Source: Streptomyces sp. NPDC020096
GTDB taxonomy: Bacteria > Actinomycetota > Actinomycetes > Streptomycetales > Streptomycetaceae
Direction: 5' to 3'
Assembly: GCA_040631425.1 (NCBI GenBank)
Contig: JBEYJY010000009.1
Coordinates: 129,802-161,801 of the forward strand
DNA length: 32,000 nt
Positions 15,556-32,000 of the stretch are shown here, in pieces. Numbering within the stretch: position 1 is the stretch's first letter; every line of letters begins with the position of its first letter. The translations under genes were made by a program, and so were the position numbers. A model generated the notes under the pieces. That model had not been told where the DNA came from. It searched no databases and was given only the letters and a program-made list of their open reading frames with translations.

Positions 15556-16284
15556 GTGCAGCTATCCCCCTCCCCTCTCTCCTCCCGGACAGTGCTTGTC
15601 ACAGGGGGGAATCGTGGAATCGGCCTCGCGATTTCCCAGCAGTTCCTCGACGATGGGTATCGCGTCGCTGTGACACATCGCGGAAGTGGTGGACCAGCAG
15701 GAGCATTCGGTGTCACCTGTGATGTCACGAACCCTAAGGATGTGGATCGCGCCTTCACCGCCGTCGAGGAAGCCATCGGGCCGGTTGAGATCCTTGTTCT
15801 GAATGCCGGGGTGACGAGCGACTCGCTTCTGATGCGGATGCGCGAAGACCAGTTCCACGGAGTCGTCGATACCAACCTGTATGGCGCCTGGCGCTGTGCG
15901 CGACGGGCGACGCCTCCGATGCTTCATGCGCGTTGGGGTCGAATGATCTTCATCTCGTCCGTATCCGCCACGTCGGGCACAGCTGGCCAGGCGAATTACG
16001 CGGCGAGCAAGTCAGCTCTCACTGGTCTTGCTCGGTCCATTACACGCGAGCTCGGTCCGCGGAACATCACGGCCAATGTCGTATCACCCGGGTGGATCGA
16101 CACCGACATGACAGCGGCACTGCCGCCGTCTCACCGGGCCGAAGTGATCAAGGGAATTCCCCTCGGTCGGGCCGGCACCACGGGAGACGTAGCCGGTGTG
16201 GTCACCTGGCTGGCCGGCGAGGCCGGAGCATACGTGTCCGGAGCGGTGATACCCGTCGACGGCGGCCTCGGGATGGGGTGCTGA
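15556..16284 (+). CDS. fabG: 3-oxoacyl-ACP reductase, FabG/MabA-type SDR, 242 aa
   Basis: GTG start with AGGAG 5 nt upstream. Motifs are VLVTGGNRGIG, NAG, SSVS...GQANYAASKSAL (Ser-Tyr-Lys) and IPVDGGLGMG. The longer ORF from 15316 is a non-coding-looking extension. Confidence 0.9.
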   Translation: MQLSPSPLSSRTVLVTGGNRGIGLAISQQFLDDGYRVAVTHRGSGGPAGAFGVTCDVTNPKDVDRAFTAVEEAIGPVEILVLNAGVTSDSLLMRMREDQFHGVVDTNLYGAWRCARRATPPMLHARWGRMIFISSVSATSGTAGQANYAASKSALTGLARSITRELGPRNITANVVSPGWIDTDMTAALPPSHRAEVIKGIPLGRAGTTGDVAGVVTWLAGEAGAYVSGAVIPVDGGLGMGC

Positions 16285-16285
16285 G

Positions 16286-16948
16286 GTGCCTGAACCGGAG
16301 GCGGGCGGCTTGCGCTTCGGCACTTCCACCCCCAGAAGGCGTCTGATCGTGGGGATGACGGGAGCGACGGGAGTAGAGATCGGCGTCAGGCTCCTTGCGG
16401 TGCTCCAAGGACGGCCGGACGTGGAGACACACCTGGTGATGACTAAGTGGGCGAGGGCCACTCTCCAAATTGAGAGTGACTATTCTCCGCGGGACGTCAT
16501 CAGCATGGCTGACCATCACTACGCACCAGCGGATCAGGCGGCGCCCATATCGAGCGGGTCCTTTTCCGTGGACGGTATGGCTATCGTTCCTTGCAGCATG
16601 AAGACCTTGGCGGGGATACGCGCTGGCTATGGAAGTGACCTTATCGGCCGTGCCGCCGATGTCACGCTGAAGGAGCGCCGCCAACTGGTGCTGGTGCCAC
16701 GGGAGACTCCACTCTCTCCCGTTCACCTAGAGAACATGCTGGAGCTGTCCCGGTTGGGCGTGACGATCCTGCCGCCGATGCCAGCTTTTTACAATCGGCC
16801 GAAGGGCATCTCGGACATCATTGATCACGCAGTTATGCGGATTCTTGACCAATTCGGCATCGATGCCGGAATCGGATCGCGGTGGAGCGGAGTCCCGCAC
16901 GCCGACGGGAACGGTTCCGAGACGCTGCATGGCGTCGTCCGTCGGTAA
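16286..16948 (+). CDS. ubiX: UbiX-family flavin prenyltransferase (prFMN synthase)
   Basis: Motifs are LIVGMTGATGVEIGVRLL, MAIVPCSMKTLAGIRAGYGSDLIGRAADVTLKERRQLVLVPRETPL and TILPPMPAFY. The GTG start is 1 nt after the fabG stop. The first ~18 aa may not be translated. Confidence 0.9.
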   Translation: MPEPEAGGLRFGTSTPRRRLIVGMTGATGVEIGVRLLAVLQGRPDVETHLVMTKWARATLQIESDYSPRDVISMADHHYAPADQAAPISSGSFSVDGMAIVPCSMKTLAGIRAGYGSDLIGRAADVTLKERRQLVLVPRETPLSPVHLENMLELSRLGVTILPPMPAFYNRPKGISDIIDHAVMRILDQFGIDAGIGSRWSGVPHADGNGSETLHGVVRR

Positions 16949-16972
16949 CGGCTACAAGGGGAGACAACTGGG

Positions 16973-30082: not shown

Positions 30083-30204
30083 CGCCGCGGCCAGCGAGAC
30101 GTCCGTGCACGTCGCGGTCGGTGCCCCGGTCTTCGCGCCGGGGATCAGTTCCACCGCAACGCCCCTACCCGTACACCACTGTCACCTACAGGAGGCATGT
30201 CGCC

Positions 30205-31530
30205 ATGAACACCATCACTCCTCGTCCCTCAGGCAACGACGCCCTGTTGGCCGCCGCCCGGGTCGTCATCGCCGGTGGAGGCAGCAGCAACATGCGCAAT
30301 CTCGGAATTCAAGATCCCCTCGTCGTTGACCGGGCCATGGGCTCCCACGTGTGGGACGTCGAGGGCAACGAACTCATCGACGTCAACATGGGCTACGGCC
30401 CTCACCTGTTTGGCTACGCTGACGCCGAGGTGGTGAACGCCGTCAGCGAGCGCCTGCGCCTCGGGGCCATGACCGGGATCGTCCACCGGCTCGATCCTCA
30501 GGCGGGCGAGCTGATCTCCGCCTTGATGCCCTCCGTGGAGCAGGTCCGTTTCGCCAACTCGGGCACCGAAGCCATTACGTCCGCGATCCGCCTGGCCCGC
30601 TTCCACACCGACCGCACGCTCGTCGTGACCTTCGAGGGCCACTACCACGGCTGGAGCGACACGTTGATGCGCGGCGCGATCACCGCTGGCAGCACCGGGC
30701 AGCACGGCCGCACCGAACTGCACGCCGCCCCTGGAACAAACCCCGAGGCGCTGTGGCACACCGTGCAGCTTCCCTGGAACGACCCCGATGCCCTCAACCG
30801 CTTCTTCGCAGACCGGGGTGCCGAGGTCGCCGCAGTGATCTGCGAACCCATCTGTGCAAACGCGGGTGTGGTGCACCCGTTGCCCGGATTCCTGGCGCAG
30901 CTGGCCGAGTTGGCCGCAGCCAACGGCGCGCTGCTCGTGTTCGACGAGGTCATCACCGGCTTCCGCGTGTCGCGCGGCGGCGCCCAGGAACTCCTGGGCA
31001 TCCGGCCCGACATCAGCATCATCTCGAAGGTGCTCGGCGGCGGCTTCCCCGTCGCCGCCTTCGGCGCAAGCCGGGAGATCATGAATCCGCTGGCACGCAA
31101 CGAGGCCTTCCACGGCGGCGTCTACAGCGGCAACCACGCCGCCGTACAAGCCGTGGTCAGCATGCTCGGCAAGATCCAGCGTAGCCCCGCGGTCTACACA
31201 GACCTCGAAGAATCCTGCTCCCACCTGGAGAAGAAGCTGCGCGACGGTTTCGCAGCAGCCGGCCGGCACGTGCGGATCGCCCGCGCAGGCTCGGTGATGT
31301 CCGTGGCCATCCTGAGCCGACCGCAAACGGGGATCGAGGCGTACGACGCGGCGGTGGACGCCATCGATTTCGCCGCACACCGCCGACTCCAGGGGCACTG
31401 TCAGCGCGCTGGGCTGTACTTCCATCCCAATCCTCTGGAGCCGTGGTTCCTCAGCAGCGCACACAGCCGTGAGGACATGGATCGGATCGTGGATGTGGTC
31501 GCACTCGGCTTGCGGGCCTTGGCGGAGTAA
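30205..31530 (+). CDS. Class III PLP aminotransferase of the glutamate-1-semialdehyde-2,1-aminomutase-like type, 441 aa
   Basis: Motifs are DVEGNELIDVNMGYGPHLFGYA, VRFANSGTEAITSAIRLAR, FEGHYHGW, LVFDEVITGFRV and PDISIISKVLGGGFPVAAFG (PLP Lys). AGGAGG lies at 30190-30195. Confidence 0.9.
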   Translation: MNTITPRPSGNDALLAAARVVIAGGGSSNMRNLGIQDPLVVDRAMGSHVWDVEGNELIDVNMGYGPHLFGYADAEVVNAVSERLRLGAMTGIVHRLDPQAGELISALMPSVEQVRFANSGTEAITSAIRLARFHTDRTLVVTFEGHYHGWSDTLMRGAITAGSTGQHGRTELHAAPGTNPEALWHTVQLPWNDPDALNRFFADRGAEVAAVICEPICANAGVVHPLPGFLAQLAELAAANGALLVFDEVITGFRVSRGGAQELLGIRPDISIISKVLGGGFPVAAFGASREIMNPLARNEAFHGGVYSGNHAAVQAVVSMLGKIQRSPAVYTDLEESCSHLEKKLRDGFAAAGRHVRIARAGSVMSVAILSRPQTGIEAYDAAVDAIDFAAHRRLQGHCQRAGLYFHPNPLEPWFLSSAHSREDMDRIVDVVALGLRALAE

Positions 31531-31700
31531 CCCGACCCACGAAACCTGCAGCCCATGGCGCTTGTTCAGCGGCGGACCAGGAAGCGCCAAAAGACGGCAA
31601 GGGCGCCCAGCGTCCTCATGGTGGTGCAGCTCGTGGGTGAGCAGCCGGGTGCGGGCACGCCCGCCCCGGCCTCGCCGACAGGACGCGGCAGAGGACCCGG

Positions 31701-32000
31701 GTGGTCGGAGACACGCCAGTGGAGCAGTTGACAGCCAGCGCCGCGGCCCGTCACCGCGAAGGTCCCTGTGGGCAGGTGCGGCCGAGCGACACATCCCCGT
31801 CGCCACACACAATCGTGGCCCTCTCATCGGCACGCGGGCACGAACGGGAGGCCGCCCGTGCACTGCTCCTGCAATCGGCCTCAGGCATGCCCGGTGTCAG
31901 CGGCACCGGGAAACTCGAGATCGGCCACCGTCCCGGCGGCCAGCCCTACATCATCGGGGCGATGACGGACACGCACATCAGCGTGAGCCATGGGCGCGGC
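31701..32000 (+). CDS. Probable 4'-phosphopantetheinyl transferase, 5' part (runs off the window)
   Basis: The frame is open from GTG 31701 to the edge and is not in the ORF track because it has no stop. ...HEREAARALLLQSASGMPGVSGTGKLEIGHRPGGQPYIIGAMTDTHISVSHGRG resembles the Sfp/EntD-type pattern (...G.P......ISxSHS). The start codon and the family call are both tentative. Confidence 0.45.
   Translation, partial: MVGDTPVEQLTASAAARHREGPCGQVRPSDTSPSPHTIVALSSARGHEREAARALLLQSASGMPGVSGTGKLEIGHRPGGQPYIIGAMTDTHISVSHGRG

Follow-up and report, generated by a model that had tools for sequence, protein, structure and literature searches.

Gene content and layout

We analysed a 32,000-nucleotide stretch of DNA from Streptomyces sp. 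NPDC020096 (contig JBEYJY010000009.1, positions 129,802 to 161,801; hereafter the window), in which positions 15556-32000 hold a block of biosynthetic genes. This block is very probably the NPDC020096 orthologue of the spinamycin (spi) gene cluster of Streptomyces albospinus JCM 3399, laid out as one co-directional operon set that runs from fabG to a 4'-phosphopantetheinyl transferase (PPTase) gene. It contains 14 complete open reading frames (ORFs) and one that is cut off by the end of the window, all on the plus strand and with zero internal stops. Genes were assigned by Pfam, NCBIfam and PDB sequence comparisons. The window proteins correspond by exact match to GenBank MEU1626443-MEU1626453, with the CreE-like protein being MEU1626452.1. 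The genes are as follows.

15556-16284, plus strand: FabG-type short-chain dehydrogenase/reductase (SDR), 242 aa; PF13561/PF00106/PF08659 and NCBIfam FabG models
16286-16948, plus strand: UbiX flavin prenyltransferase; PF02441 and the NCBIfam BagM/FevK and ubiX_pad models
16973-18436, plus strand: UbiD-family prenylated flavin mononucleotide (prFMN) decarboxylase; three UbiD Pfam domains
18493-19926, plus strand: first ANL enzyme (ANL1); PF00501 and PF13193
19982 or 20042 to 20299, plus strand: acyl carrier protein (ACP); PF00550
20296-21522, plus strand: ketosynthase (KS); PF00109/PF02801
21519-22094, plus strand: short KS-like protein resembling a chain length factor (CLF), 191 aa; weak PF13723
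22091-23686, plus strand: second ANL enzyme (ANL2), SpiA7 orthologue; AMP-binding (ANL) domain
23720 or 23798 to 24337, plus strand: Cys-rich hypothetical protein; 179 aa with the ATG at 23798 as start, longest ORF from 23720
24334-25044, plus strand: Rv2466c-like DsbA-fold protein; PF22234, E 4e-59
25074 or 25158 to 26333, plus strand: class II 3-deoxy-D-arabino-heptulosonate 7-phosphate synthase (DAHPS); PF01474, E 2e-122; likely start 25158 (391 aa)
26459-28594, plus strand: CreE-like FAD/NAD(P)-binding protein; PF13454
28607-30082, plus strand: CreD-like fumarate-lyase-type enzyme; PF00206/PF10397
30121 or 30205 to 31530, plus strand: class-III aminotransferase, PctV-like; PF00202; longest ORF from 30121
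~31701 or 31719 to 32000, plus strand: 5' part of the PPTase gene, cut by the window end; recognised from its translation and from the PF01648 PPTases of relatives

Start and stop codons overlap as ATGA at 20296, 21519, 22091 and 24334. Between the end of fabG (16284) and the start of ubiX (16286) lies 1 nt, and the other intergenic gaps in the block are no longer than 125 nt. The co-directional block, the four overlaps and the 1-nt gap had been described in an earlier note on this DNA (the original prediction), and our gene calls agree with it exactly (14 complete genes and one cut-off gene). Terminator-like hairpins were no more frequent in the block than in shuffled sequence. The G+C content of the window (0.63-0.72) is that of high-GC actinomycete DNA, and that of the cluster is slightly below that of the left flank, with 0.63-0.65 at the cluster start (15001-18000) compared with 0.70-0.72 in the left flank.

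Orthology with the spi cluster

Spinamycin is an antifungal compound built from 3-aminobenzoate, and its cluster in S. albospinus JCM 3399 was reportedly published by Kawai et al. in ACS Chem Biol in 2023. A scan of genomes with the CreE-like protein gave two close loci, one in Streptomyces sp. NBC_00133 (L001) and the other in S. albospinus JCM 3399 (L002). In blastn comparisons, the S. albospinus locus (NZ_BMRP01000010.1) was collinear with the window over 16855-31518 at 87-88% nucleotide identity, with fabG and the start of the PPTase gene also matching at lower stringency. The NBC_00133 locus was collinear over 16466-32000 at ~92.5% nucleotide identity. The complete genes shared with S. 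albospinus (13 of 13) are in the same order in both strains, and their products are 74-90% identical. By exact look-up, the S. albospinus orthologue of ANL2 is WP_189300626.1, and a single E-D fusion of 1,256-1,268 aa is WP_189300634.1. In PMC11705231 these accessions stand for the spinamycin cluster proteins SpiA7 and SpiED. Because of this match, the S. albospinus locus is the published spi cluster and the block in the window can with high confidence be regarded as its orthologue. The two clusters share the order from fabG to the PPTase gene, the SpiA7-type diazotase, the nitrite-forming genes, the PctV-like enzyme, UbiD, the Rv2466c-like protein and class II DAHPS.

The block is a copy, in another strain, of a cluster type that is already known. 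The original prediction could match the full gene combination to no characterised cluster, and had named full-length synteny with high identity to one as evidence against it. The spi cluster shows such full-length synteny, at 87-88% nucleotide identity. The main value of this result is negative: the pathway is that of spinamycin, already known, carried by a further strain, and the locus should not be followed up as a cluster of a new type.

About six other strains are known to have the cluster. NPDC023998, NBC_00133, NBC_00210 and NBC_00289 carry this gene set, and NPDC002285 carries part of it. NBC_00289 (CP108046.1) carries two copies, at ~0.38-0.40 Mb and 10.22-10.24 Mb, which are inverted and near both chromosome ends, probably inside terminal inverted repeats. 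ISL3 and IS4-type transposase genes lie upstream of these copies. On an 11.5 kb contig of NPDC002285, a divergent ANL-ACP-KS-CLF-ANL-hypothetical-Rv2466c-like sub-operon (60-64% identity) is followed by a transposase fragment, and the contig ends before linkage to UbiD, PctV or CreE/CreD could show. The thirteen other CreE loci from the scan have only CreE and CreD in common with the window (43-57%) and share none of its polyketide synthase (PKS), UbiD, hypothetical or Rv2466c genes. The penzonemycin (pzm) cluster was rejected as a relative on account of its CreM-type ligase and different gene set.

Starter supply and polyketide genes

The best PDB matches of the aminotransferase are 4ZM3 and 4ZM4 (E 3e-146), compared with ~3e-74 for glutamate-1-semialdehyde aminomutases. 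What separates these two entries in sequence is a change of K to R at the Schiff-base residue, in keeping with wild-type PctV and its K276R mutant. The window aminotransferase retains this lysine (SKV) and is 90% identical to its S. albospinus orthologue. PctV is the 3-aminobenzoate synthase of pactamycin biosynthesis, and the window enzyme is predicted to be a PctV-type pyridoxal phosphate (PLP)-dependent 3-aminobenzoate synthase that acts on 3-dehydroshikimate. The pactamycin (pct) cluster was among those that the original prediction had proposed for comparison, and the E value of 3e-146 to 4ZM3 bears out this choice.

The class II DAHPS is 87% identical to S. albospinus WP_189300632.1 and would feed the shikimate pathway for 3-dehydroshikimate. 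ANL1 matches only generic aryl/acyl ligases in the PDB, but it shares 86% identity with S. albospinus WP_189300618.1 and by orthology is a candidate for SpiA3, a starter-loading aryl-AMP/ACP ligase. At the level of sequence, the window contains a set for supply and loading of a 3-aminobenzoate starter, consisting of the PctV-type enzyme, the ligase and the ACP. Pactamycin biosynthesis is similar in that it uses the PctV relative and passes 3-aminobenzoate to a ligase, an ACP and a KS that are discrete proteins (PMC12836137). It differs in having one extension followed by aminocyclitol chemistry, with no nitrite pathway, diazotase or UbiD.

The ACP carries the DSL serine motif. Its orthologues are called at 85-87 aa, and its start is likely at 20042, giving 85 aa. 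The KS retains Cys165 (ACTAS), His299 and His334 and matches the NCBIfam FabF and AmcF models, and it is predicted to act in a type II PKS of the highly reducing kind. The short CLF-like protein has a weak match to NCBIfam AmcG, from the cispentacin system, and its gene has ATGA overlaps at both ends. The long form of this ORF is supported because its N-terminus is conserved in four orthologues. The FabG-type SDR is 94% identical to the NPDC023998 orthologue. It is encoded by the first gene of the conserved block, is AvaA8-like, and by gene order may correspond to SpiA1. At the other end of the block, the partial PPTase is 82% identical to the NBC_00133 PPTase (PF01648) and is also present in S. 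albospinus.

Nitrite formation and diazotisation

The CreE-like protein matches PDB 8CP2 over residues 7-641 (E 5e-183) and shares 77% identity with the E portion of SpiED. The CreD-like protein matches CreD (PDB 5XNY) with E 6e-137, compared with 1e-87 for 3-carboxymuconate cycloisomerase. We predict that the former is an FAD-dependent aspartate N-oxygenase (nitrosuccinate synthase) and the latter a nitrosuccinate lyase. Judged by sequence, the gene pair of the aspartate-nitrosuccinate (ANS) pathway is present, because the CreE-type gene adjoins one for a lyase closer to CreD than to the cycloisomerases or adenylosuccinate lyases.

ANL2 is 88% identical to S. albospinus WP_189300626.1 (SpiA7). 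Its best PDB matches are 8ZTZ and 9IJF (E 1e-104), followed by 9BQ0 (E 3e-88), which is Tri17 (PMC12207350). Mutagenesis has shown that His224, Phe267 and Lys533 of CmaA6 are essential for nitrite activation (PMC12207350). These residues align with H222, F265 and K523 of ANL2 once a 16-residue tag offset is allowed for, which brings each of the three onto a residue of the expected type. Among NCBIfam models, ANL2 scores best with that of the AvaA6 diazotase, at 437 bits against a cut-off of 975. ANL2 is the orthologue of SpiA7 and is predicted to be an ATP-dependent diazotase. Spinamycin is a hydrazide-bearing aryl polyene for which SpiED supplies nitrite, and SpiA7 diazotises anilines without a hydroxyl group, with an aminophenyl-heptatrienoic acid proposed as its native substrate (PMC11705231).

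UbiX and UbiD

The ubiX gene lies 24 nt upstream of ubiD, and its product shares 94-95% identity with those of NPDC023998 and NBC_00133. The best PDB match of UbiD is 6DA6 (E 2e-164), which we take to be TtnD of tautomycetin biosynthesis, ahead of PA0254/HudA-type enzymes and Fdc1 (~1e-93). UbiD scores 665 bits against the NCBIfam BagN/FevL model, below the cut-off of 1000. It has the acid-base Glu motif GEFTGY at residue 276 and is 86% identical to the S. albospinus orthologue. Its next relatives belong to BagN/FevL-type UbiX-UbiD modules, with 58% identity to proteins annotated as BagN/FevL. With the three domains, the Glu motif and the partner UbiX all present, UbiD is predicted to belong to the Fdc1/TtnD/BagN branch. 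BagM/BagN (FevK/FevL) of bagremycin and ferroverdin and TtnD belong to the same UbiD subfamily and likewise have ubiX immediately upstream, but they occur in MarR-UbiX-UbiD modules or in other pathways. A UbiD of S. angustmyceticus (63% identical) was rejected as a sign of a related cluster, because its context is a MarR-UbiX-UbiD module of aromatic catabolism.

The UbiD substrate would be a 7-aryl-hepta-2,4,6-trienoic acid, decarboxylated to a terminal triene; both the step and its timing are suggested by comparison. Loss of CO2 from a seven-carbon trienoic acid would leave the six-carbon triene chain of spinamycin. This decarboxylation is proposed because of that carbon count, the affinity to TtnD and BagN, and the precedent of triacsin biosynthesis, where Tri9 and Tri10 are a UbiX and UbiD that decarboxylate a polyene acid in a nitrite-using pathway (bioRxiv 10.1101/2021.05.12.443849).

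The Cys-rich ORF and the Rv2466c-like protein

The Cys-rich ORF has no Pfam or NCBIfam match, but it has a conserved CPC...C...C pattern, and more distant homologues carry PF14196. The ORF occupies the avaB position, and in an unrelated PKS cluster a homologue lies directly 3' of the KS gene. Because of this position, the PF14196 domain in distant homologues and the homologue after a KS elsewhere, the Cys-rich ORF is probably the counterpart of AvaB and CmaB, a PKS helper.

The next gene product resembles M. tuberculosis Rv2466c in the PDB (E 5e-52, ~45-50% identity), which Pfam describes as a mycothiol-dependent nitroreductase. The gene is coupled translationally to the AvaB-like gene by an ATGA overlap, takes the slot of AvaA7 in ava and cma, and lies immediately 3' of that helper at all the spi-type loci examined. 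Within this spi clade the proteins are 60-100% identical, compared with at most 50% to generic family members. The CPWA motif, which differs from the CPWC of Rv2466c, was considered as a hallmark of the clade and rejected, because generic Streptomyces homologues also have CPWA. The published work on spinamycin leaves the conversion of the diazonium to the hydrazide without an assigned enzyme and considers that it could be a spontaneous Japp-Klingemann reaction or enzymatic (PMC11705231). A candidate for this step is the Rv2466c-like gene, which is conserved across the spi-type loci, and some part for its product in dealing with the diazonium is a sensible hypothesis. The idea that its product captures or reduces the aryl diazonium on the way to the hydrazide, for example in a mycothiol-dependent manner, is a speculative one that we consider rather improbable. 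If it is true, diazonium handling would be a new reaction for the family.

Proposed pathway

A route to spinamycin can be proposed from these genes. Class II DAHPS would raise flux through the shikimate pathway, and the PctV-like PLP enzyme would convert 3-dehydroshikimate to 3-aminobenzoate. ANL1, the putative SpiA3 orthologue, would adenylate 3-aminobenzoate and load it onto the ACP activated by the PPTase. The KS would then work with its short CLF-like partner, with FabG and with the AvaB-like helper to carry out three extensions, using a dehydratase (DH) borrowed from fatty acid synthase and giving 7-(3-aminophenyl)hepta-2,4,6-trienoic acid. CreE and CreD would form nitrite from aspartate, and ANL2, the SpiA7 orthologue, would activate this nitrite with ATP and diazotise the aryl amine. 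The unstable diazonium would be converted to an acyl hydrazide with the N-N unit kept, by steps that are unassigned, and the TtnD-type UbiD, using prFMN from UbiX, would remove the carboxylate to leave the terminal triene. The gene identities, the orthology with spi and the catalytic residues in this scheme come from the present analysis, whereas published work supplies what SpiA7 and SpiED do and the aminophenyl-heptatrienoic acid intermediate. What the helper and the Rv2466c-like protein do is our own inference.

Much of this chemistry had been anticipated in the original prediction. An aminoaryl starter, extension by discrete KS, KS-like, ACP and ketoreductase proteins, nitrite from CreE and CreD, diazotisation by an ANL enzyme and decarboxylation by a prFMN enzyme all match what has been published or implied for spinamycin. 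The remark that the window has no DH, thioesterase (TE) or malonyl transferase gene holds for the block, but such absence is usual for the class and is also found in ava and cma (PMC10777205). In those systems fatty acid synthase provides the DH, and no TE is known (PMC10777205).

Differences from the type cluster

Several points weigh against a simple equation of the block with the spi cluster. That NPDC020096 makes spinamycin itself, presumably N'-acetyl-3-(hexa-1,3,5-trienyl)phenylhydrazine, is what we infer from its genes. The assignments of SpiA1-A6 and the place of UbiD in the published cluster are putative ones, based on the order of the genes and the numbering of accessions. In the window CreE and CreD are separate proteins, whereas SpiED is a fusion, and the native upstream region with its promoter may have been replaced, so that the cluster could be silent.

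The fusion can be traced to one codon. In the window, creE and creD share a reading frame that is interrupted by one TGA (28592-28594), and a spacer containing GGAG precedes the ATG of creD. We compared the E/D junctions of the window (28560-28620), S. albospinus (L002 12290-12350) and NBC_00133 (L001 12020-12080). S. albospinus has CGA at the creE-end codon, which produces the SpiED fusion, whereas the window and NBC_00133 have TGA. The 70-residue tail or linker of CreE is poorly conserved, and its reading frame shifts in NBC_00133. Because this region is not conserved, the fusion looks incidental, a peculiarity of the strain rather than a defining feature.

A second difference concerns ubiX. 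The window, NBC_00133, NPDC023998 and NBC_00289 all have an intact copy of this gene, but in S. albospinus it is internally deleted. Comparison of L002 350-509 with window 16285-16972 showed that ~530 nt have been lost between two TTCGGCA repeats, with 160 nt left between fabG and ubiD. S. albospinus also has a second UbiX (51% identical) encoded ~5 kb downstream (L002 19947-20711), next to a luciferase-like monooxygenase gene. The strain comparison identifies a conserved core from fabG to the PPTase gene, a SpiED fusion that is a single-base change, and a type-strain ubiX that is a deletion remnant. With its intact ubiX and unfused CreE and CreD, NPDC020096 would be a cleaner system than S. 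albospinus for probing the role of the Rv2466c-like protein.

The original prediction had allowed that the cluster might continue beyond position 32000. This finds no support in NBC_00133, the closest relative for which downstream sequence is available. There only the remainder of the PPTase gene follows, and then come a small convergent gene and, on the other strand, genes for a branched-chain amino-acid ATP-binding cassette (ABC) transporter. The conserved core ends with the PPTase gene, of which ~0.5 kb lies beyond 32000. Flanking genes differ between the window and S. albospinus, and the flanks differ in every genome that was compared. Homology with NPDC023998, the nearest relative for which upstream sequence is available, starts at window position 15541, 15 nt before fabG, with nothing shared upstream. 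The window has the following features upstream of this point.

12026-13567, plus strand: regulator of the Streptomyces antibiotic regulatory protein (SARP) type, 513 aa; BTAD and Trans_reg_C domains
14210-14833, minus strand: LuxR-type regulator, between the rearranged left flank described below and the cluster
14683-15447, minus strand: IS4 transposase remnant with the N-terminal domain only, directly upstream of fabG; PF13006, E 2e-29

The break in homology 15 nt upstream of fabG and the IS4 remnant at this place are the reasons for suggesting that the native promoter may have been replaced. The SARP and LuxR-type regulators both lie between the rearranged flank and the cluster and are not conserved beside it in relatives, the one match being to a shorter SARP of NPDC023998 (28%).

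Alternative readings

Two other products can be considered for these genes. Diazotisation could serve deamination, as in ava and cma, so that the amine is replaced by hydride and the product is a nitrogen-free aryl polyene, such as a phenylhexatriene after decarboxylation. The gene order ANL-ACP-KS-CLF-diazotase-hypothetical-X-...-E-D mirrors avaA1-A3-A4-A5-A6-B-A7-E-D, and ava and cma share with the window a highly reducing type II PKS, an aminobenzoate primer, the core order ligase-ACP-KS-CLF-diazotase-hypothetical and nearby E and D genes, as well as nitrite from CreE and CreD homologues and the absence of a cluster DH or TE (PMC10777205). The best NCBIfam model of ANL2 is AvaA6, and a hydroxyl-free diazonium readily loses N2 (PMC11705231). 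However, the AvaA6 score of 437 bits is far under the 975-bit cut-off. AvaA7 is an NAD(P)-dependent enzyme that has been compared with sugar epimerases and that processes the diazo group (PMC10777205); the window has no such NADPH epimerase-family enzyme, and the slot is filled by the PF22234 Rv2466c-like protein, AvaA7 having been compared by its description only. The ava and cma clusters further differ in their 3-amino-4-hydroxybenzoic acid (3,4-AHBA) starter, made by GriH/GriI-type enzymes, in the replacement of N2 by hydride through AvaA7, in having two ACPs and in lacking UbiD/UbiX and DAHPS. No GriH/GriI-type 3,4-AHBA synthase domains were found among the window genes, where the starter enzyme is PctV-like, and the 87%-identical S. 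albospinus cluster makes a hydrazide, spinamycin, that retains the N-N unit. We consider deamination very unlikely. A triacsin-like outcome would have the ANL enzyme N-nitrosate a polyene that carries a hydrazine, yielding an N-hydroxytriazene before UbiD decarboxylation. It would draw on UbiX/UbiD, discrete PKS parts, CreE/CreD and the Tri17 homologue (9BQ0, E 3e-88), all common to both systems. Triacsin biosynthesis likewise uses UbiX/UbiD on a fully unsaturated polyketide acid and an ATP- and nitrite-dependent ANL enzyme, and Tri16 and Tri21 are CreD and CreE homologues (bioRxiv 10.1101/2021.05.12.443849). By contrast, its starter is hydrazinoacetate, made by Tri26-28, and its product an N-hydroxytriazene. 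Neither the window nor the 6.6 kb downstream in NBC_00133 contains Tri26-28-type genes (lysine N-hydroxylase, cupin-MetRS hydrazine synthetase). The window instead has a PctV-like starter enzyme for an aromatic amine, and its ANL2 is 88% identical to SpiA7. Such an outcome is hardly credible.

A different kind of alternative is that the copy in NPDC020096 looks intact but is transcriptionally orphaned. It would have been moved to a place beside the IS4 remnant, would have left its own promoter or regulator behind, and would normally make nothing. The break at 15541 and the IS4 N-terminal fragment on the minus strand are in keeping with this. A scan for sigma-70-like promoters found none, with Streptomyces promoter types being outside that scan, and the cluster sits in different flanks in every genome, with the NBC_00289 copies flanked by transposase genes at both chromosome ends. 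Against this, all 14 complete ORFs are intact and SARP and LuxR-type regulators lie just upstream. An orphaned copy seems unlikely to us, if less so than the two chemical alternatives. It concerns expression and not identity, and is compatible with the block being the spi cluster of NPDC020096.

The left flank

Sequence that forms the right flank in NBC_00133 sits 4.5 kb to the left of the cluster in the window (10571-11008, minus strand, and 11356-11605), which points to a rearrangement. The first of these segments is a 145-aa gene without a Pfam match, whose product is 71% identical to that of the gene after the PPTase gene in NBC_00133 (L001 15893-16312). Window positions 10579-10999 were considered as a second PPTase remnant, and this was rejected, because they belong to that minus-strand gene, the homologue of which is downstream of the NBC_00133 PPTase gene. 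Further to the left, transketolase-family and aldehyde dehydrogenase genes occur at 1229-5123 on the plus strand, with no link to the cluster found.

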